IMG/VR virus record: IMGVR_UViG_3300045963_000133
Span: 1-25,308 of that record
Strand: one strand, 5' to 3'
Length of the DNA: 25,308 nucleotides
Source of the DNA: a virus
Taxonomy: Duplodnaviria > Caudoviricetes
Position 1 is the stretch's first letter, and each line of letters begins with the position of its first letter. Position numbers and translations under genes: made by a program. Positions 3,327 through 25,308 of the stretch are shown here, piece after piece. The notes beneath the pieces were generated by a model that did not search any database, had not been told where the DNA came from, and worked only from the letters and a program-made list of their open reading frames with translations.

Positions 3327-3486
3327 GGCTGCCTCTCTTGCGGATGTGCTGACCCAGCGGGACGACGGTTTCGACCGTCGAGAATTTGTGGCCGTTGCCG
3401 CAGATCCGGCGCCGTCTCGGGCCGGACGGTGAGTTCCTGGTGTCCAGGACGTCGCTGAAAGGAGAGGTGCATTCAGGGCACCTCAC
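3250..3486 (-). CDS. NrdR N-terminal-like zinc-ribbon protein
   Basis: MRCPEC...VLDTR...RRRRICGNGHKFSTVE matches the NrdR Zn-ribbon motif. No ATP-cone domain. Confidence 0.75.
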   Translation of the reverse strand: MRCPECTSPFSDVLDTRNSPSGPRRRRICGNGHKFSTVETVVPLGQHIRKRGSREPKQADEAHRVQAGVDAQAGQADG

Positions 3487-3818
3487 AGCGCTGTCACCGA
3501 CCAGGCCTTCTTGACCTTCTGGGCCAGGAAGAACTGCGCAGGGAAACGCGAGGCGGCGACCTTGAGCTTCACGCGGCCGTCGTCGGTGATGAAGCCGCCC
3601 TTGACCTCATGCACCTCGAGCGATCGGTCGGCCAACATCACACCAAAGTCGATGTCGTAGAACGTCCGGTCTGCCAGGCGGATCTTGAAGGGCTCGAATT
3701 CCCACCAGATCACCTCGCCGGCATGCTTGCGCAGCTCGAGCATGGCGGCGTATTCGGCCTCGGTGCGATTCATCTTGCCAGCCGGAAGGCGGCCCAGGGC
3801 CCTGAACTGCGGCGTCAT
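3483..3818 (-). CDS. DUF1064-like PD-(D/E)xK nuclease
   Basis: KMNRTEAEYA, YDIDF and HEVKGG motifs. Confidence 0.8.
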   Translation of the reverse strand: MTPQFRALGRLPAGKMNRTEAEYAAMLELRKHAGEVIWWEFEPFKIRLADRTFYDIDFGVMLADRSLEVHEVKGGFITDDGRVKLKVAASRFPAQFFLAQKVKKAWSVTAL

Positions 3819-4168
3819 GCGGCACCCCTATCCATGGCCCGGTTCGTGGCCTCCATCGAGCGATAGACGTCGATCGCAGCCTGGGCGATCACCATGGTCC
3901 AGCGGAGCTGCTCCTCGAGCCTGACGGCTTCCTTCAGGCCATCCAGGTGTGCCGAGTACGACTCATCGGCATAGGCCTCGCGCTCCTGGGCCGCAGCGCT
4001 GGTGTTGCCGGCCTTCTCGGCCGACCGCATCAGGATGGCCTTCAAGCTCTTGCGGTACTCCTCCAGGTACACCCGGTCGGCCTTAGCCTGGGCCAGCCTC
4101 GGGCCAGTCGACTGCATCGCCTGCAGCGACTTCATCGGATCCACTTCCCGCGCAACCCCGTCATTCAT
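3815..4168 (-). CDS. helical coiled-coil hypothetical phage protein
   Basis: SD GGAGG before ATG 4168, ATGA coupling downstream, pattern AKADRVYLEEYRKS...AAQEREAYA. Confidence 0.75.
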   Translation of the reverse strand: MNDGVAREVDPMKSLQAMQSTGPRLAQAKADRVYLEEYRKSLKAILMRSAEKAGNTSAAAQEREAYADESYSAHLDGLKEAVRLEEQLRWTMVIAQAAIDVYRSMEATNRAMDRGAA

Positions 4169-4180
4169 CTGACCCTCCAT

Positions 4181-4423
4181 CTGTAGTCAATACCTGGAAC
4201 ACCTAGACCACCTGACACTCCGAGCTGGACAGACCTAGCCCTTCCTGGGTAGGCCTTCACATGAACCGACACTCGTCGCAGTTACATGACCCGCCAGTCG
4301 CTCGACGCTGGGGCACTAGCTTCGCCACCCCGCTGCCCTGTCTCAACGTCTACCCCCCGGTTGGGCTTCGTGGCCTGCGTGCCGGTGCATTTGCATGCGT
4401 CCACGCAGGCCATCGAGGCCGGC
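4181..4423 (-). other. structured intergenic element (candidate ncRNA and/or replication origin)
   Basis: Several hairpins, including an 11-bp perfect stem (4371-4381/4402-4412) and stems that need G-U pairs on the - strand. Three tandem ACCT-starting 9-mers at 4192-4218. Confidence 0.45.
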
Positions 4424-5362
4424 CTATCCGGCCGCCTCAAGGCCCACCGACCGGTACTCCACTGGCTGCCCCCTCATAGCCCCCACCAGCAGCCTGCAAA
4501 GGGCCGGCAGGCCGTACTGGACGTGCAGGTCGTTGGCATCCATCCCCTCGTACTCCGGAGCGGCCCATGGCAGGCCCGTGGCGGCAGCAGCGAACTGACC
4601 TGTGCAGCCCGGGTTGATGCGGGCCTTGACCGGGTCGCGCTGCGGTGCATCGTGGTCTGCGATGACCACACGCTTGCCGCCGATCAGCTTGGCCACGACC
4701 TTGAGGTTGTGAGCTGAGAACGTCACGATGACCGCAGCACGCAGGCGCATCTGCCGGCAGGCCAGCTCGACCGACAGAGCAGTGGCATAGCCCTCAACCA
4801 GGAACGTCACATCGGGGTGGCGCGGGCCGAGGCGCAGCATGGCGCCGTCGGACTGCTGGCCGTAGATGTACTTTTTCTCCCAGCGCATCTCTTCGGGCAG
4901 CCACTTGATGACCTGGCCGCCGACCAGGTGCTGGTGCTGGTCGCGCATGGGGATGAACAGCTCTCCGCCTGGCAGCACCAGGCCGGTGGCATCCGGGAAC
5001 CCCTTGCGGTGCAGGTAGTCGTGCGTGTCTGGCCTGGCGCTGTCCAGGATCTTTGCCGCCTTGGCCTCGGCGCTCGTGCGCAGGTCGACGCGCTCTTGCA
5101 TCAGCAACTGCCGGCGCGCACGGGCCCTGGCCCTGTCGGCTTCGGTCTCGGCAGGCGCCCGGGGATCCTGATAGCGGATGGCGACACCGTCACCGTCCCA
5201 GGCCCAGACGAAGCCTCCCTTACCGTCCCAGACGTAGGCGCCATTCTTCGAGCGTGGGTGCTCGACCGTGGCGCAGCGGCGCAGCTTGCCGCTGTCGTCC
5301 AGGCGGCTCGGGTCGATCTCGACGCCGTGCGCTCGCGCGAAGGCGATGAATTCGTAGCTCAT
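4424..5362 (-). CDS. TOPRIM-domain DNA primase
   Basis: YLHRKG, IPMRD, EGYATALS, IADHD and DANDL motifs. Coupled to the helicase gene. Confidence 0.85.
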   Translation of the reverse strand: MSYEFIAFARAHGVEIDPSRLDDSGKLRRCATVEHPRSKNGAYVWDGKGGFVWAWDGDGVAIRYQDPRAPAETEADRARARARRQLLMQERVDLRTSAEAKAAKILDSARPDTHDYLHRKGFPDATGLVLPGGELFIPMRDQHQHLVGGQVIKWLPEEMRWEKKYIYGQQSDGAMLRLGPRHPDVTFLVEGYATALSVELACRQMRLRAAVIVTFSAHNLKVVAKLIGGKRVVIADHDAPQRDPVKARINPGCTGQFAAAATGLPWAAPEYEGMDANDLHVQYGLPALCRLLVGAMRGQPVEYRSVGLEAAG

Positions 5363-17998: not shown

Positions 17999-18255
17999 AA
18001 GTTAAGCTAAAGCCGTGCCCGTTCTGCGGAAGCAGTTCTGTGCTCAGTCACGAGCGGGGGGATGAGGTCCGCAACCAGCGTTGGCGAGCAGGCTGCGATG
18101 TGTGCGGCATCTGGACCACTTGGTGTTCTGGATCCAATAGCTGGGCGACCAAAAAGACAGCCGACACCGCTGCAATTTTCAGCGTAGCCGCCTTCTGGAA
18201 CAGCCGGGCTACAGACCAGCCTTCCGCTTCAGGGCCTCTGCCCGGCCCAGCGTGA
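17995..18255 (+). CDS. Lar-family (restriction alleviation-like) Zn-finger protein
   Basis: LKPCPFCG...CDVCG...WNSRA pattern, SD GAGG. Confidence 0.75.
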   Translation: MKVKLKPCPFCGSSSVLSHERGDEVRNQRWRAGCDVCGIWTTWCSGSNSWATKKTADTAAIFSVAAFWNSRATDQPSASGPLPGPA

Positions 18256-21200
18256 CCGATCGCAGGAACTGGTCGTAGACCTCGGCCTCATCCCGCTCGA
18301 GCTGCTTCACCGCACCGCGCTGGTAGGCCAGGCTCAGGGTCTTGTCCCCGTTGATCTCATCGACCCGGTCGCGCAGCGACTTGATCTGCTTCTGGTAGCC
18401 CTTGGCGCCCCGGGCTAGGGCCAGCAGCTCCTCGTTGTCCGCAGACACCTTGTTCATGCCGTCCTCATCGCCGGCCTTGGCTGCACGCTGGAAGTCCAGC
18501 AGCGCGGCCTTGGCTTCGTTGCTGGCATCCCAGAAGGCGCGCCGGCTGTCTGTCACCCGTTCCTGCTTGGTGTAGTCGCGCAGGATGGGGATCTCGTGGC
18601 GCTCCGGCGCCAGGGCGTCGTTGTCTGGGTTGCTCATGCCGGCCCGAACACCCAAGCCCGCCAGGTGCGTCAGGTCCGACAAGAAGGTGCCGGTGCCGCC
18701 GGTCAGGGCGCTGGCCCAGAACTTCAGGGTCTCTGGGCTGATGTCGACCGCGCCACTCTGTGTGGCCGTTCCGCCCGTCAGGTCACTCATCCCACGGGCC
18801 AGCATGTCGTAGCTGCTGCCCTTGGTGCTGCGGTTCAAGCGCAGGAAGTCAGGCCGGCCCTCATCGAATTTCGAGTCCGGAACGATGGGGCTACCGAAGC
18901 TGGAACGGTTCGCGACGATGCGTGCGGCATCGCGGAACAGCTCGCCGCCGGCATATCCGGGTATCAGCTCGACAAGGCCCTTGGGGTCTGCTGTGCCCCA
19001 GGTCTTGGCGCCCTCGAGCGGATTTCCGACCGGGCTGAAGTTCGACAGGAGGGAGTTGGCGATGCTGACCGACAGCTCGTTGATGCTGCTGCCGCGCTGC
19101 AGGTCGAACATCGCATTGCCCAGGCTGTGGAAGATGCCGAACCCGAACGGCACCGGGATGGTGATGTAGGTGTCCTCGCCAGTGCGCAGGATGAGGTTGC
19201 GGTCCTTGACGTTGTTGCTGATCTTGAGCCAGCGCTGGTAGTCGTCGTCGCCGCCGCCGAACTGCAGGGCGGCCAGGGAATAGGCAGACGCCAGCATGCC
19301 CCACACAAGCGCCATAGCCTGGCCCTTGTGCTTGCCCTTGGTGAACATGTCGATGATCGACGCTGTGTCCTGCACGTTGGGGTTGAAGAACAGGTACAGG
19401 GCGCCCAGCGTGCCGCCCATCTCGCCCTTGCGGTTGAAGTTCAGGGTGCTGTTCTTGCCGGCGCTGGCAGCCTGATCGACCGACCCAGTCTCCTGAAGAA
19501 CCTGCTCGAAGGCAGCCAGCCGCATGGCGTTCTCAGTCGCCCCGTTCAGGCGCTCGATCCAGCCGGCCAGGCCACCGATGACCTTGCCCGCAGCAACCCG
19601 CGCGCTGGCCTTGTACCTGCCCTGCATCGCCAGGGCCTTGACGCCGACGTATTCCTCGTACTGCTTCTGGATGTCGGTGCCAATGCGCTCCAGGTCGCCC
19701 AGGTAGGCTGCGCCCGTGCTGCCGCCGCTGGCCCGGTACTGGTCGATCAGCGGGGTGCTGGTGCCGCTGAAGCTGTAGCGCAGCAAGCTGGCCAGGGCCT
19801 TGGGGTACTTGGCCAGGACGCCGGCCGTCGTTTTGACGCCGAAGTTCCCGGTCAGCTTGATCACGCCGGATCCGAAGTCCCGGATCAGGTTGCGCGGGAT
19901 GAAGGCCGGGTTGTAGCCGGTGTAGGCCCGCGACAGGAACGTGTTGATGTTGCGGCTGATCTGGATCAGCTTGCCCATCTGGTCGCTGTTCAGGCGCTTG
20001 TAGGACTGGGCCAGCAGCGGGTCGTTGATCTGCATGCGCACGGCGTGGCCGTTGACGTAGACCTGCGCCTCGTGCTCCTCGAGCATCGGGCGGGCCCGGT
20101 ACTGGACCATCGGGTCGCCCACCATCTCTCGGATCACCAGGCGGTGCGCGCCGGGAGACCTGACCCTGATCTGGTCGCGGATGAACTTCTCGGCATCGGC
20201 CCGGGTGTCGAAGGTGGCCACCGACAGCGCAGGGTTCTGCGCGCGGACGTCGTACTGCTTGCTGTTGACCAGCATGGCCCGCTTGACCGGCTGGTCGACT
20301 GTGCCGATCCGAGGGTCGGCCATCTCGGTCAGCCACAGCATCATGGTCTGGCCGACACGGTTCTTTTCGACCAGCATCACTGCACGCTCATAGTCGCGCA
20401 TGATGTTCTCGAGGATGTGCTCCTCGCGCAGCGTGTGGCCCATGGCCCGCTTGGTCTTGCCATTGACGCTCAGGCCCTTGCCGGTGCCAGTCTTGCTGGC
20501 CTCGGCATCATCCCCGCCCTTCAGGGGGACGTAGTGCTGGTAGGCAGCGCTCCAGGCTGCAGACTGCTCCGGGGTGATGATCCCGCCGCGCAGCAGGATG
20601 TCCTTGGCCCGGGTCGTGATGGCCTGGAACTGGGCCGCGATAGCCTTGAGCTGCGGGCTGGCTGCAGCCAGGATCTGCTGCGCGTCTGCGGTGTCCATGC
20701 CGCTGCCGCCATCTGGCATCTGCGGGTTGATCCTGGCGACCTGCTGGTTGCGCTCATCGGCATGCTGCGCGTGCAGCACCTGGGCAATGTCGTCCAGGCT
20801 GAAGCCGGCCCGCTGGGCGCGCTCGATCAGTGGCTTGAAGGTCTTCTCGCGGAAGTCCTCGATGCGTGTGGCTGTGCGGCCATGCATGCGCTCCTCGGCC
20901 CCATAGACGTCAGATGCCAGGCTGAGCTGCGCGCCGTTCTCCAGCGCCCAGGTGCGGATCTTCTGCATGCGGAGGTGCTGGTCCTGGATCACGCGCCGGC
21001 TGGCCTCGTAGCGGGTCTCCTCGGGCACCGGCTGCTGCTGGTGGCTGAAGCGGATGTCTGGGTTGGTCGGGTCGAAGGCGCCACTGTTGTCGGTCTGCTT
21101 GCGACTGAACATCGGCAGGCCGTCGGCCGCCTTCTCGCGCATGGCGGGGGTGATGTCGAAGCCGGGCTGACCTTCGTGCGTGATGTCGTACTCGCCAGTC

Positions 21201-24200
21201 GGCTCGCCAGTAAACGCGCTGGTGCGTTGATCTGCGAGATCCACCGACTCCATCCGCCCACCACCCAGCTTGCGCAGCACGTCCTTGGCCACGGCCGGCA
21301 CGATCTTGTCGTAGAAGGCCTTCATGCCTTCGCCGCCGACCTTGAGGTCCAGGCCGCGCAGATCTCCGCTGTCGTCCTGGTTGATCTTCTGCGCGATCTC
21401 CTTGCCGAGGACATCCTCGAGGGTCTTGCCTTCGAAGTCTCCTTCGGCGATGACGCCCTTCCCGCCGGCCGGCGTGTTCACCTCGAAGCCGATGGTATTG
21501 CCGCCGGACGTCTCGAGCTGCACGAGCGTACGCATGACGTTCAGGTCGGAGCTGAACCCGGGGTTCCACTGGATGTAGTTGACCTGGCTGCTCAGGTCAT
21601 ATCGGTCGGCGCTCTGGTCGCCCGTGACGAACGCCACCTTGTCGTAGCCCTCATCGACGGCCATCTTGATGACGCGCTTCAGGGCCAGGGCGACCCACTT
21701 GTCGGTCTTGTCTATGAAGGGGGCGCGCGGCACGCCGCCCCTGTTCGGCGCCTGACTGACCGTGCTGCGCTGCTCCTCCAATACATCGAAAGTGCCGCGA
21801 TTGATCTCTCTGATGACCAGCCGCGCCTCCATGTTTTCGCCGGGGTTGGGCGGCGGATTGCGCCGAATCCAAGTCTCCGCAGCAGCGCGAGAGGCTGTGC
21901 GCTCCAAGGTGTCTACCGCCTGCCATTCGGTGTTCTGCGGAATCAGGTCGCCCGTGATACCTTTCTTCTTGCCCTCCTGCGCCCAGTCGCTCTGGATCTC
22001 CTCCACGAACAGCACGCGCTTGCCGTCGGCATCTGTGCGGTCGTTGACGCGGATGTGGGCCAGGATGTTGGGCTGGTCCCAGTGTCCGGATAGATAGTTG
22101 ACTTTTTCCGCACTGGCTTTGAACTTGGTGCGCGCCGCTTCTGTCAGGTCGGCGTCACGGGCGACTCGGGCTTGCCTAGCAATCTCTTGCGCTTCAGCCG
22201 CCTCATCACTGAATGGTCCGAATTTTTCTTCGGCGTAACGCAAGGCTGCTGCAGACTCTGCAATAGACCGTGCGTGTTTCTGCGCTACAGCAGCGCGCCA
22301 CTCATCATTGGAGTTGACTTTTGGCGGCAGCGTCAGCAGCACCTCACGGTAGTTGGTGCCGCCTGGCAGGGTGTAGCTGTGGTACTTCGTCTGGGCCGCG
22401 CTGTCGGGGTAGGTTTCAGCGAAGAGATCATTGGCCGTGTCGATGACCTCCTGGTCGCTGAAGTCCCCATAGTCGGCGTTGAACTCTGCCTTGGTCTGAT
22501 CGTGATATTCCCGCAGGAAGTCGCGCGCAGAGCCAAAGGAGGAGAACTCCTTGTGCAGGGAGCCTGCGCCATGCACCGTCTCTTCCAGCTTCACGCCGTT
22601 TCCGGCCAGGAACTGCAGCACCTGGTCCTTGGTGACCTTGCCCTGCTGCAGCGCCAGCCAGTCGTTGATGCCGGACCACTCGACCTCGTCGGCCTTGACG
22701 TCGCCCTTGGCCACCAGGCCCTTGATGACGCCATTCCAGCCCTGTGCGGGGCCGGCCTTCATGTCGACGGTGCCCAGGCGGCGCTCGAGGGCGCTGTACC
22801 AGGGGTCCTGCTTTTGGCTGGATCGAAGGTCGCCGAGACTGTTGGTCAGATTGCTCCGAAGCAGATCGGGGCTGACATCACCATCCCCCAGGCTGCCATC
22901 AGACCGCCCTTGCGCAGCTTGTTGAGGTCCCAGTGCGAGCGACTTGAAAATGACCGCGAAACGTAGAGTTCCACTGCCCGGCATTCCCGCTCGGTCAGTG
23001 ACGGGCGCAGCCTCTCTGGATCGTTCTGCCAGACGCTGGAAATCAGCTCTTCCAAAGTCTGCTCCGTCGTGGGTGAATCTTCCGGTGCGGGGGTCAAAGC
23101 GGATCTCCTTGATCTCAGGTACGAGCTTGGAGGTTACACGACTGGATGCGTTGAGCAAATGCATCAGGTTGTGGTCGCTGTTGTTTGACCACATCAATCC
23201 GCCCCAACCGTGAAGCATGTCCTCGTGCGGCCTCATGAAGTCGGTCGTGCCGTACTTCAAGGCCAGCGAGATCATGTTCTCCAGGCGGCGCCTCTTGCCG
23301 GCTTCGCTGATGCCATCCGGGTCGCCGATGAACGTCTTGCCGTTGTTCTTGGCGTAGGCGCCTGCGATCTGGTAGATGGCGCCGCCGGCCATGCCCGATG
23401 TCATGCTGCCGACGTTGACCCACACCGCATCACGCTTGACGCCGATGTAGCTGTCACGGCTGTAGCGCACGCCGTCCTTTTCCCCGGAGATGTTCAAGAC
23501 GTACATCTTGTCAGCCCGGGTGTCGATCTTGCTGTTGACGGCTTGCAGCTTGATGCCGTACTGACCACCAATGTCCTTGATGATCTGAGGCATCTCCTTG
23601 GCGTCTGTCTTCGGCGTGCGGAACATGCCGTCGCCGAAGTCGCTCGCATACTCCTTGATGGCCTCGGTGGCCGCCTTGACGCTCTTCCTGAGCGTCAGGT
23701 CTTCGGAGCTTGCTTCGGCGCCAGGGCTGGAACGCTGGGCTGCTTGGGCTGAACGGATTTCGCGGGCGAGGAGACGGGAGGCTTCTGCCCGAAGAGCACG
23801 AGCCCGCTGCCGAGCCAGGCCTGCGTTTCCTCTGGGGTCATTCGACGGTAAGCCATAGTCGTAGTCCTTCTTCTCCGGGAATGCTGAGTACACATCAGCC
23901 CCACCGACAGGGTAGGCGCCTGCGAGCTTTTCGTCAATCAGGCGCCCCAGCTCATCTGTGGCCACGTCTGAGTAGTTCAGCACGGTCATCTGGCCGTTGA
24001 TGGTCGACTGGCCGCCGACGACCTGCTCACCATTGACTCTGATCTCGCGCAGCTTCTGGTAGATCTCGTCTACCTTGCCCTCGTTCATGACGCCGATGTC
24101 GATGCGGATCGCACCGACCGAGTCGCCGCCCTTGAACTCCTTGGGCGCCAGCAGCATCATGGAGTCCTGGTTCAAGACGAACCCGATCTCCTTGGAGATC

Positions 24201-25308
24201 TGCAGGGCGCTGCCGCTCTTCTCCAGCATCAGGGCGAAGCTGGGGTTGGTGAACTCTTGGTAGCTGCCGATCTGGGTGGCGCTGAGCGCCTTCATGTTGT
24301 AGGCAGCCAGCACCTTGGGGACGATGACACGGGCCACGGCCTTGCTGATCGACAGCTTGGCAGCGCTGGCCAGGCTGTTCCAGGTGGACGTGAGCTTGGC
24401 GTCGTTGGGGTCAGGCGCCACCTCGAAGATGACGCGGACCCGCTTGGGATCTACGGCTTCTTTTTCGAGCTGGGTGCGCTCGTATCTGGCGTCGAGGAAC
24501 TGCTGGCGCTCTTTTCCTTGGAGCGCATCAGCTCGCCCAGGCCCTTCACCATCCGCTTGCGCTCCTCCGGTGTCATGGCCGCCATCATCCTGTCGTGCCT
24601 GTCCTGATCCAAGTTCTCCTGCTGCGAGGATTGTTGCTTCATCGATGCCTTCCTCTTTCAAAACCTTCAGGGCTGCGCCAGCGTAGTCCTGGCTGGTGAC
24701 GGTGAGCCTGGTGCCGAGGGACCGGTACAGCTCCTGCTCAGGATACCAAATGAGAGCCTGCAGCGAGGCTGCCGGGACCCTGGTGCCGAGCTGCTTGTGG
24801 AGGATGCGCACGGCCTCCTTGACCACGGCACGCATGAGCCGGCGCTCGCCGCCACTGGCGGGTGCGTCCTTGGGCTTGTCCATGGACTTGACGATGTTGC
24901 CGGCCGCGAAGACTAGGGGCGTCTTGATCCGGGTCTTGGCGTCGAAGCCAGCACGGTTGTTCACGAAGTCGCGCTGGTGCCGCCGATCGACCTCGCGCGC
25001 CAGGTCCACGATGGCGCTCTCGTTGAACCCCATGTTCCCGTCTTCGTCCTCGACCTGCTCGCGCGCGGCGGCCACCATGGCCGGGTCGAAGTCGGCCGCG
25101 TACAGGCCATCGCTGCCGGTGTCGTCCAGCGCGGCCATGAAGTCGTTGGTCTGCTTGTCGAACTTCTTGGCGTCGAAGGATTTCAGCTTGCCGATCAGGC
25201 GGCCGATCGTGCGCATGAACCACATGTCCATGGTCACAGGCTCGAAGTTGCCGGTCAGGTTGCTGAAGAACCCGAAACCGATCTTGGGGCCAAGCACTGA
25301 CGACCCCA
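18209..25308 (-). CDS. giant polyvalent protein (>2360 aa, 5'-truncated by window edge) with C-terminal LPD38-like domain; likely virion-delivered
   Basis: The frame stays open to the window end. Modules: HhH-glycosylase-like (GPKIG..F..NL..VTMDMW..QALIW), an unknown domain, GNAT-like (GMAGGAIYQ..GDPDGIS), the SGHW..LFVEEIQSDW domain, and an LPD38-like C-terminus (YITIPVPFGFG, NRSSFGSPIVP, ISPETL). Confidence 0.85.
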   Translation of the reverse strand, partial: GSSVLGPKIGFGFFSNLTGNFEPVTMDMWFMRTIGRLIGKLKSFDAKKFDKQTNDFMAALDDTGSDGLYAADFDPAMVAAAREQVEDEDGNMGFNESAIVDLAREVDRRHQRDFVNNRAGFDAKTRIKTPLVFAAGNIVKSMDKPKDAPASGGERRLMRAVVKEAVRILHKQLGTRVPAASLQALIWYPEQELYRSLGTRLTVTSQDYAGAALKVLKEEGIDEATILAAGELGSGQARQDDGGHDTGGAQADGEGPGRADALQGKERQQFLDARYERTQLEKEAVDPKRVRVIFEVAPDPNDAKLTSTWNSLASAAKLSISKAVARVIVPKVLAAYNMKALSATQIGSYQEFTNPSFALMLEKSGSALQISKEIGFVLNQDSMMLLAPKEFKGGDSVGAIRIDIGVMNEGKVDEIYQKLREIRVNGEQVVGGQSTINGQMTVLNYSDVATDELGRLIDEKLAGAYPVGGADVYSAFPEKKDYDYGLPSNDPRGNAGLARQRARALRAEASRLLAREIRSAQAAQRSSPGAEASSEDLTLRKSVKAATEAIKEYASDFGDGMFRTPKTDAKEMPQIIKDIGGQYGIKLQAVNSKIDTRADKMYVLNISGEKDGVRYSRDSYIGVKRDAVWVNVGSMTSGMAGGAIYQIAGAYAKNNGKTFIGDPDGISEAGKRRRLENMISLALKYGTTDFMRPHEDMLHGWGGLMWSNNSDHNLMHLLNASSRVTSKLVPEIKEIRFDPRTGRFTHDGADFGRADFQRLAERSREAAPVTDRAGMPGSGTLRFAVIFKSLALGPQQAAQGRSDGSLGDGDVSPDLLRSNLTNSLGDLRSSQKQDPWYSALERRLGTVDMKAGPAQGWNGVIKGLVAKGDVKADEVEWSGINDWLALQQGKVTKDQVLQFLAGNGVKLEETVHGAGSLHKEFSSFGSARDFLREYHDQTKAEFNADYGDFSDQEVIDTANDLFAETYPDSAAQTKYHSYTLPGGTNYREVLLTLPPKVNSNDEWRAAVAQKHARSIAESAAALRYAEEKFGPFSDEAAEAQEIARQARVARDADLTEAARTKFKASAEKVNYLSGHWDQPNILAHIRVNDRTDADGKRVLFVEEIQSDWAQEGKKKGITGDLIPQNTEWQAVDTLERTASRAAAETWIRRNPPPNPGENMEARLVIREINRGTFDVLEEQRSTVSQAPNRGGVPRAPFIDKTDKWVALALKRVIKMAVDEGYDKVAFVTGDQSADRYDLSSQVNYIQWNPGFSSDLNVMRTLVQLETSGGNTIGFEVNTPAGGKGVIAEGDFEGKTLEDVLGKEIAQKINQDDSGDLRGLDLKVGGEGMKAFYDKIVPAVAKDVLRKLGGGRMESVDLADQRTSAFTGEPTGEYDITHEGQPGFDITPAMREKAADGLPMFSRKQTDNSGAFDPTNPDIRFSHQQQPVPEETRYEASRRVIQDQHLRMQKIRTWALENGAQLSLASDVYGAEERMHGRTATRIEDFREKTFKPLIERAQRAGFSLDDIAQVLHAQHADERNQQVARINPQMPDGGSGMDTADAQQILAAASPQLKAIAAQFQAITTRAKDILLRGGIITPEQSAAWSAAYQHYVPLKGGDDAEASKTGTGKGLSVNGKTKRAMGHTLREEHILENIMRDYERAVMLVEKNRVGQTMMLWLTEMADPRIGTVDQPVKRAMLVNSKQYDVRAQNPALSVATFDTRADAEKFIRDQIRVRSPGAHRLVIREMVGDPMVQYRARPMLEEHEAQVYVNGHAVRMQINDPLLAQSYKRLNSDQMGKLIQISRNINTFLSRAYTGYNPAFIPRNLIRDFGSGVIKLTGNFGVKTTAGVLAKYPKALASLLRYSFSGTSTPLIDQYRASGGSTGAAYLGDLERIGTDIQKQYEEYVGVKALAMQGRYKASARVAAGKVIGGLAGWIERLNGATENAMRLAAFEQVLQETGSVDQAASAGKNSTLNFNRKGEMGGTLGALYLFFNPNVQDTASIIDMFTKGKHKGQAMALVWGMLASAYSLAALQFGGGDDDYQRWLKISNNVKDRNLILRTGEDTYITIPVPFGFGIFHSLGNAMFDLQRGSSINELSVSIANSLLSNFSPVGNPLEGAKTWGTADPKGLVELIPGYAGGELFRDAARIVANRSSFGSPIVPDSKFDEGRPDFLRLNRSTKGSSYDMLARGMSDLTGGTATQSGAVDISPETLKFWASALTGGTGTFLSDLTHLAGLGVRAGMSNPDNDALAPERHEIPILRDYTKQERVTDSRRAFWDASNEAKAALLDFQRAAKAGDEDGMNKVSADNEELLALARGAKGYQKQIKSLRDRVDEINGDKTLSLAYQRGAVKQLERDEAEVYDQFLRSVTLGRAEALKRKAGL
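22846..23097 (-). CDS. nested +1-frame ORF C (83 aa, TTG start)
   Basis: SD AAGGAG 7 nt before TTG 23097. Sequence is protein-like and amphipathic (TLEELISSVWQNDPERLRPSLTERECRAVELYV). Confidence 0.55.
   Translation of the reverse strand: MTPAPEDSPTTEQTLEELISSVWQNDPERLRPSLTERECRAVELYVSRSFSSRSHWDLNKLRKGGLMAAWGMVMSAPICFGAI
23695..23856 (-). CDS. nested +1-frame ORF B (53 aa, MAYRRMTPEETQAWLGSGLVLFGQK...)
   Basis: SD AAGGA 8 nt before ATG 23856. 41 of 53 codons end in G/C. Confidence 0.58.
   Translation of the reverse strand: MAYRRMTPEETQAWLGSGLVLFGQKPPVSSPAKSVQPKQPSVPALAPKQAPKT
24451..24642 (-). CDS. nested +1-frame ORF A (63 aa) inside the giant gene
   Basis: SD AGAGGA 8 nt before the ATG. 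30 of the first 34 codons end in G/C, versus 11 of 34 for the host frame over the same span. Confidence 0.6.
   Translation of the reverse strand: MKQQSSQQENLDQDRHDRMMAAMTPEERKRMVKGLGELMRSKEKSASSSSTPDTSAPSSKKKP

Follow-up and report, generated by a model that had tools for sequence, protein, structure and literature searches.

Genes that lie wholly inside a longer gene, on the same strand and in another frame, are known from phage lambda (Rz1 in Rz), phiX174 (B and E) and Bacillus (comS in srfAB), and Rz1 is a partner of the protein encoded by its host gene. Small partner genes are also found in type II toxin-antitoxin pairs such as epsilon/zeta (PezAT). In the intragenic toxin-antitoxin pair RpnL/RpnS (PMC10400984; the system is also described by Zhong et al., PMC10327210) the inhibitor is encoded inside the effector gene, is made from an internal start and is specific for its cognate effector. 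Temperate phages also carry the MuF polymorphic toxins, in which a short open reading frame (ORF) follows the toxin domain (Jamet et al. 2017, PMC5576092); a short ORF of no known family was reported behind 89.4% of 191 toxin genes. The polyvalent proteins of phages and conjugative elements (Iyer et al. 2017, PMC5512222), finally, are giant multi-domain proteins of temperate-phage context with shuffled conflict domains. Here we analyse a giant gene of this last kind, carrying the domains LPD37 and LPD38, in a 25,308-nucleotide stretch of DNA from a virus of the Caudoviricetes (IMG/VR record IMGVR_UViG_3300045963_000133, positions 1 to 25,308; this whole stretch is called the window), together with three small ORFs nested in its +1 frame.

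The giant gene occupies 18209..25306 on the minus strand, on which its domains and the nested ORFs also lie, and is open at its 5' end at the window edge, with 2365 codons inside the window. We consider it probable, at roughly 70%, that the nested ORFs encode cognate inhibitors, which bind the domain encoded directly upstream of them and keep it off while the giant protein, likely packaged into the virion, is being made. The nested genes, their linkage to the upstream domains and the selection acting on them emerge from the comparison of related loci, and the binding of one ORF A peptide to its domain is predicted by modelling; inhibition, toxicity, binding by the other two peptides, packaging and release are inferred.

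Three nested genes and the selection on them

An earlier note on this DNA had placed three ORFs inside the giant gene, all in its +1 frame, and all were found at those places with the Shine-Dalgarno (SD) sequences and spacings it gave. In detail, ORF A (24451..24642, 63 amino acids, main-frame residues 222-285) starts with ATG 8 nucleotides behind AGAGGA (24651..24656), ORF B (23695..23856, 53 amino acids, residues 484-537) starts with ATG 8 nucleotides behind AAGGA (23865..23869) and ORF C (22846..23097, 83 amino acids, residues 737-820) starts with TTG 7 nucleotides behind AAGGAG (23105..23110). The peptide encoded by ORF A has a conserved QxNLDQDxHDxW motif followed by two helices.

Base composition at the third codon position (GC3) moves to the +1 frame over these ORFs. 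For the first 34 codons of ORF A the earlier count of 30/34 against 11/34 in the main frame was reproduced; over the whole ORFs the figures for the +1 and main frames are 54/64 and 29/64 for A, 41/54 and 30/54 for B, and 60/84 and 44/84 for C, and main-frame GC3, which is about 0.9 elsewhere, drops to 0.37-0.53. The codon-usage log-likelihood (+1 minus main) was +0.31 for A, +0.03 for B and +0.02 for C, compared to a background of -1.2 +/- 0.3 in the rest of the giant gene (maximum -0.09 to -0.27), i.e. the nested ORFs stand about 4-5 standard deviations above it. When the giant gene inside the window was scanned by SD, length and codon usage, these three ORFs were returned and no others. A fourth nested gene was considered at a further GC3 dip (22144-22336, residues 991-1050) and rejected: no SD-led ORF exists there and relatives carry other sequence. 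This dip is due to a variable segment of lower GC3 (about 22092-22324) within domain 4 (21101..22804), an unnamed domain in which the contigs of relatives have 70 or 206 other letters in place of this segment.

Open frames of this kind could be unexpressed shadows of the amino acid composition of the main frame, a reading which we regard as extremely improbable. After synonymous recoding of the main frame (20000 trials) the +1 frame stayed open in 90% of the trials for A, 87% for B and 23% for C; the open frame alone is therefore weak evidence within a single genome, and for A and B it is what the main-frame amino acids lead one to expect (0.90 and 0.87). In addition, the ORF C of the window fails to score on the broad profile of its family. 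The elevated codon usage, the conserved starts, a flipped substitution pattern, a relative of ORF C in locus L235 and 581 clusters of called proteins matching its family, all described below, speak against shadows, and for A and B this reading is already contradicted.

For the comparison 80 loci with domain 1, the domain upstream of ORF A, 67 with domain 2, upstream of ORF B, and 93 with LPD37, upstream of ORF C, were gathered; LPD37 loci were obtained with alignment queries, the single-sequence search having found none. After removal of duplicates and of two loci cut by contig ends, all 63 distinct domain 1 sequences (window included) showed an SD-led +1 ORF of at least 30 amino acids directly after the domain. 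No comparable ORF was present in the +2 frame, and random in-gene windows gave one in 10% of cases. The start codon was ATG in 54 sequences, GTG in six and TTG in three. Behind domain 2, 59 of 63 distinct homologues passed the SD rule, and an ATG followed by at least 30 open codons was seen at the aligned place in 62 of the 63, the remaining one using GTG.

The nested peptides A and B each form a family with motifs of its own, the conserved core of B being about 27 amino acids long (M-[PA]-V...G-x-[VI]-[ILV]-FG-x-K-R-P). Against hidden Markov models (HMMs) of their families built without the window, ORF A scored 82 bits (best shuffle 7.4) and ORF B 59.8 bits (best shuffle 8.2). Scans of Pfam and PHROGs gave no family for ORF A, B or C. 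The MTPEE motif that A and B have in common might be taken for a sign of kinship; this homology was ruled out by an hhalign probability of 0.2%, the two are unrelated, and the motif is presumably a common helix cap.

Behind LPD37 a +1 stretch of at least 54 codons was found in 69 of 70 distinct sequences that carry the anchor motif (loci lacking it were excluded), and the ORF C family HMM, itself built from 44 of these loci, matches 67 of 75 LPD37 loci. Members of this family overlap the end of LPD37 across many bacterial lineages. The ORF C of the window is a diverged member at the position of this large PFY...YW family and scores 2.4-4.1 bits on the HMM, not clearly above shuffles. Its closest relative, in locus L235, has an ATG at the same start position, equal length and 45% identity (E 5e-26), and for this reason we regard the ORF C of the window as a real subfamily member at the family position. 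Taken together, the comparisons indicate that the three nested ORFs are real genes.

Standard gene callers had been expected to miss all three. This holds for the three GenBank phage records examined, in all of which the giant gene alone is annotated. It does not hold for the ORF C family in general, which is sometimes called, since 581 clusters of called small proteins (median 90 amino acids among the best 150) match its profile. Unannotated nested ORFs in these records include one of the ORF C family (E 6e-17) inside a DarB-like gene of Erwinia phage PEp14 (L250, NC_016767, locus about 1984-2257). Limnohabitans phage DC33 (L251, PQ492659) carries unannotated SD-led nested ORFs at 3624-3839 and 4473-4661, and MW202722 (L252) at 3337-3525, 3955-4218 and 4222-4407; the nested ORFs of the latter two records include two that stand back to back behind domain 2. 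Long variants of ORF A (L082, L106-L131) have an extra conserved C-terminal module, R-A-x-x-x-H-x-G-L-T-R...A-F-G-F, which also ends a different nested ORF of DC33 and may represent a second fused partner.

Selection was compared between the frames by pooled pairwise ratios of non-synonymous to synonymous substitution rates (dN/dS; close and mid pairs), which are 0.08-0.19 for the domains in the main frame. Over ORF A the ratio was 0.16-0.26 in the +1 frame and 1.4-2.1 in the main frame, over ORF B 0.50-0.53 and 0.81-0.87, and over ORF C 0.54-0.86 and 0.62-0.63, the last from 5 and 9 pairs only. The substitution pattern was also counted for isolated changes in 25 (A), 19 (B) and 5 (C) pairs in which no sequence was used twice. 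The ratio of changes silent only in the main frame to those silent only in +1 shifts from 280:9 in the domain to 16:89 in the overlap for A, from 137:14 to 17:37 for B and from 22:7 to 11:11 for C. The expectation of purifying selection in +1 and relaxed selection in the main frame is therefore borne out for A, where selection flips to the +1 frame, and not for B and C, which are constrained in both. From these figures it follows that the "linker" under ORF A is the shadow of a small gene and that the DNA of B and C codes in both frames. Likewise, the statement that each ORF starts where a domain ends and spans a low-complexity linker does not apply to ORF C, as LPD37 extends to residue 790, 54 codons into it, and the main frame under ORF B is also constrained. 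Overprinting in the strict sense, in which the nested frame would be the younger and less constrained one, does not fit the constraint observed: over A it is the main frame that is unconstrained, and over B and C both frames are constrained.

Ribosomes could instead enter the +1 frame by programmed frameshifting, which would yield truncated fusions of a domain with a tail, or the ORFs could be translational control elements of the giant messenger. In many loci some codons ahead of the start are free of stops in +1, and shifts into this frame can be stimulated by a preceding SD-like sequence, as in prfB. We nevertheless consider this very improbable, as ATG, GTG and TTG replace each other at a fixed distance from the SD, a +1 stop lies just upstream of the start in many loci, amino acid motifs are selected in the +1 frame and an orphan ORF C has a start of its own. 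A sigma-70-like internal promoter was sought in 22600-25308 and none was found. No RNA dataset is listed with this stretch; three DNA runs match 22784-25277 without differences, but the window may itself stem from these runs.

Linkage to the upstream domain

In all 112 ORF A, 104 ORF B and 68 ORF C matches (284/284, counted over loci that were fetched via the domains and not deduplicated) the own domain lies upstream, whatever follows. Domain 1 precedes domain 2 in 42 loci and follows it in 29, many other contexts also occur, and in 30 of 63 sequences little of the giant gene remains beyond ORF A. The possibility that a nested peptide is the partner of the domain downstream of it was rejected for A, B and C, as the domain that follows differs between loci and the one that precedes does not. 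Searches that started from the peptides used single peptides, reached close relatives only (26 loci for ORF A, 2 and 1 for the others) and in one case covered 12 of 64 database parts; with one ORF A peptide, domain 1 was upstream in 25 of 26 loci and the remaining locus is at a contig edge. No orphan ORF A or B was seen in these limited searches.

Eleven distant copies of the glycosylase-like domain 1 gave no ORF A match, and ten of them were read (L015 duplicates L014). In nine of the ten the +1 frame is open at the same place and encodes a different peptide; the tenth, L018, has no nested ORF.

Stand-alone cassettes do exist for LPD37. LPD37 genes of 270-300 amino acids (L205 2417-3283, L169, L246, L248 and L249), which lie in contexts that do not look like phage, one of them next to an IS21 element, have retained ORF C at the 3' end, and the stand-alone domain 2 proteins P0011 and P0012 keep the tail at the protein level. 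In L231 (1151-3253) domain 2 and its nested ORF are part of a 701-amino-acid protein whose gene is flanked by portal and MuF genes. Paludibacillus litoralis (L317, about 1270-1700) contains an orphan gene of the ORF C family with an N-terminal extension, with no LPD37 and with stops in the other frame.

These data also bear on whether the nested ORFs are independent small genes that were captured by read-through and are carried along with neighbouring DNA, without being functionally bound to the domain before them. It is indeed the main frame that is passive over ORF A, some relatives contain a nested small basic gene of a PHROG family, L317 has ORF C by itself, and neighbouring DNA moves jointly whatever its function. 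Passengers would not explain that none of the 284 matches lies behind a non-cognate domain, that the peptide changes with the domain subfamily and that a cognate complex is predicted at 0.83 against 0.01 for the best control (see below), and we regard this reading as quite improbable.

The arrangement is not restricted to the three domains of the window. A survey of 234 loci that contain long frames gave 303 nested ORFs (201 distinct) with an SD and favourable codon usage, all of them in +1 and none in +2. This uniformity probably follows from the genetic code, because stops are scarce in this frame when the gene is GC3-rich (1.9 per 100 codons in +1 of this gene compared to 3.0), so that the giant frame can read through a small gene in this phase. 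Behind the Zeta_toxin domains of related giants an SD-led +1 ORF is present in 14 of 14 distinct cases, five of which were queries chosen because of their nested ORF. Examples are L001 1142-1321, L005 1166-1384 and L034 2798-2983, in addition to 11 further loci, with at least three sequence types of nested ORF; the three zeta-associated peptides that were scanned had no Pfam match. Several further families of nested ORFs sit behind unnamed domains.

The upstream domains and a predicted ORF A complex

The window contains the C-terminal half of domain 1 (24671..25306), the remainder lying beyond it. In relative L068, whose domain 1 is 91% identical, the giant gene continues upstream with a RelA/SpoT domain ahead of domain 1 (L068 1-2340). 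A model of the L068 domain (predicted local distance difference test, pLDDT, 89.9) was compared with known structures by VIA, and the first 22 rows are all of the HhH-GPD type (Z 9.4-6.1), followed by unrelated bundles (Z at most 5.6). The best match was 3n0u (Z 9.4, root-mean-square deviation 4.2, 195 residues aligned); Foldseek gave nothing under E 0.001 for this model. A GPK lysine (25283-25285) and a TMD aspartate (25226-25228) are invariant in 41 domain 1 sequences, and from the motifs of the family we take these to be the hairpin lysine and the catalytic aspartate. Domain 1 is thus predicted to have the DNA-glycosylase fold of 3n0u, EndoIII, MutY and ROS1, with Lys and Asp kept.

Domain 2 (23855..24454) is modelled as two ferredoxin-like repeats (pLDDT 93.4). 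In Foldseek the S-adenosylmethionine (SAM) lyase of phage T3 (8bb1; probability 1.00, TM-score 0.42/0.55) had the best TM-score among the matches listed. VIA placed the SAM lyases 6zm9 (Z 7.7), 7ock (7.5) and 9gab (7.5) below RND porter domains and BMY-1 (8.2-9.5), and a viral library gave SAM hydrolases at E 0.013-0.017. The predicted fold may thus resemble that of the phage SAM lyases, i.e. Svi3-3 (6zm9) and T3 (7ock/8bb1) (PMC7877911). The identity of domains 1 and 2 to the glycosylases and SAM lyases is 12-14%, and domain 2 differs in addition in being a tandem repeat that may lack the catalytic Glu.

LPD37 (PF18853) is recognised by Pfam at 22937..23632 with E 3e-42. We presumed it to be GNAT-like from a likeness of motifs only, and this remains unsupported: no PDB or Pfam GNAT match was obtained, no PDB sequence match was better than E 0.5, and the ESM Atlas gave no usable match. 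There, domain 4 matched only unnamed clusters, with scores under 0.9. Searches of PDB sequences with profiles of domains 1, 2 and LPD37 returned nothing under E 0.2, and a sequence search found no solved structure of the domain 1 family.

The earlier note had suggested modelling each domain with cognate and non-cognate peptides, and one ORF A pair was modelled. As the window lacks half of domain 1, the complete cognate pair of relative L069 was used, whose domain is about 60% and whose peptide is 54% identical to those of the window, the peptide being in register. The ipSAE interface score was 0.83 in three runs and 0.01 for the best control; for calibration, 116 of 157 solved complexes but 2 of 215 mismatched pairs attained the mark used, which is a rough guide here because own alignments were used. 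The runs share at least 77% of their contacts and the partner pLDDT is at least 77. On the domain, the predicted interface comprises residues 139-144 (SQG), 231-234 (GPK) and 250-254 (TMD), of which S139, Q140, G231-I234, T250, D252, M253 and W254 are invariant, and the likewise invariant Gln13 of the peptide is placed on Gly231-Lys233, i.e. on the putative catalytic lysine. ORF A is hence predicted to bind across the active site of domain 1. We know of no similar solved complex.

Proposed function and comparison with known systems

The domain together with the tail that is also read in +1 may be regarded as a portable cassette that brings its own partner gene and that, because it is one single open frame, could be inserted or reordered without breaking the polyprotein. 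Translation of the peptide would likely begin from the internal SD, with no separate messenger but the late one of the giant gene. The ORF A peptide would lie across the DNA-binding cleft of the glycosylase, with Gln13 on the GPK lysine and the second helix on the helical subdomain, and ORFs B and C would likely act as partners of domain 2 and LPD37. A bound peptide would hold its domain off in the producing cell; packaging or ejection of the giant protein would then strip the inhibitor off or leave it behind, so that the domain would be active in the next host.

The earlier note had read each unit as a toxin-antitoxin cassette. Conserved genes, linkage to the upstream domain, stand-alone and orphan copies, the predicted ORF A complex and the layout of the zeta domains agree with this; a nested gene after each module and the MTPEE motif as a sign of kinship had to be given up. 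Taking an effector-immunity pair as a small co-oriented gene directly behind an effector domain and always linked to it, we found this arrangement throughout, save in L018.

Several observations weigh against inhibition. Domain 4 of the window has no SD-led nested ORF at its end, and neither behind it nor behind the RelA/SpoT domain of L068 does a nested ORF of favourable codon usage occur. A glycosylase copy in L018 (1767-2950) keeps Lys and Asp and runs into domain 2 without a nested ORF. The domains would have to be harmful to the producing cell, and both their toxicity and their enzyme activity are presumed. At the presumed position of the SAM-lyase Glu, matched by eye to the motif, domain 2 has Asn in 45 and Ser in 7 of 52 sequences; as the exchange E69Q lowers the activity of the Svi3-3 SAM lyase 4500-fold (PMC7877911), domain 2 may need no antidote. 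The modelled pair belongs to a relative and not to the window, the conserved core of ORF B is short and its N-terminal half variable, and the ORF C of the window has lost the PFY motif of its family. The correlations between domain and peptide distances (rho 0.47 and 0.73) are not telling, since linkage alone predicts them. Finally, a small basic protein of the MPLKKG type (phrog_2423), which is +1-nested in some giants (e.g. L131 2114-2287), resembles a passenger and does not look like an antidote.

Part of this would suit peptides that act as chaperones, packaging adaptors or activators of domains harmless to the producer. Linkage, selection and predicted binding are to be expected of any obligate partner, domain 2 may lack its Glu, and the glycosylase of L018 looks intact without a nested ORF. 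The predicted ORF A interface, on the other hand, covers the putative catalytic Lys and Asp and the SQG motif, zeta-toxin domains share the layout, and LPD37 genes that stand alone and are not virion genes retain ORF C, which also exists as an orphan. We therefore judge helpers of this kind unlikely and prefer cognate inhibition.

A broader proposal, to which we give slightly better than an even chance, is that polyvalent proteins are trains of effectors built from self-neutralising cassettes, their linkers being the +1 shadows of unannotated cognate inhibitors (of glycosylase, SAM-lyase-like, LPD37 and zeta kinase domains), that a nested ORF marks domains dangerous to the producer and that ORF A plugs the HhH-GPD active site. 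This would offer an answer to the question of how a phage can make a virion protein with DNA-cutting, cofactor-destroying or wall-blocking domains and spare the producer, and it would explain how domains are shuffled in frame with the antidote retained. The supposed low-complexity linkers would become a searchable source of small enzyme inhibitors and a route to cloning and studying otherwise toxic domains of unknown function, e.g. LPD37. For annotation, part of the Pfam model of LPD37, its C-terminus, sits on doubly coding DNA, and deposited phage annotations miss nested genes.

The giant protein passes the Pfam cut-offs for LPD37 (residues 559-790) and for LPD38 (PF18857; residues 2024-2221, 18644..19237), the latter in its conserved C-terminal part, which resembles PHROG families, DarB-like antirestriction among these. 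The giant ORF lies at the right end of the window and runs off it; the window, which is part of a temperate phage, also contains repressor, ERF, YqaJ, helicase, Toprim and integrase genes. By the definition of Iyer et al. (2017, PMC5512222) the giant protein is polyvalent, and it is likely a virion or ejection protein, its packaging and delivery being suggested by LPD38, the DarB-like PHROG match and that study.

What differs from the polyvalent proteins as described are the small +1 genes behind single domains. The main text of PMC5512222 is silent on "overlapping" and "glycosylase", and its passages with "nested", "immunity" or "antitoxin" do not concern partner genes inside an ORF. A literature search, with subscription papers mostly outside its reach, likewise turned up no description of polyvalent proteins whose genes contain partner genes out of frame. 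MuF toxins, as described by Jamet et al., have one C-terminal toxin and a separate downstream gene, whereas the giant described here has its domains in the interior, continues its reading frame across each partner gene and joins several cassettes in a row. Unlike in epsilon/zeta pairs, the peptides nested behind the zeta domains of related giants lie downstream, overlap the giant gene and, in the three scanned, have no Pfam match. Rz1, phiX174 B and E and comS are fixed single cases, whereas the nesting seen here recurs as a module that travels with its domain. RpnS is encoded in frame, as the C-terminal part of the toxin, whereas the partners described here are unrelated in sequence to the giant, occur several per gene and are found on the phage side. 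By analogy, the nested genes would work like type II toxin-antitoxin or MuF toxin-immunity pairs and like the gene-in-gene antitoxins of the Rpn family, yet they depart from the in-frame arrangement of Rpn, as all three ORFs are read in +1.

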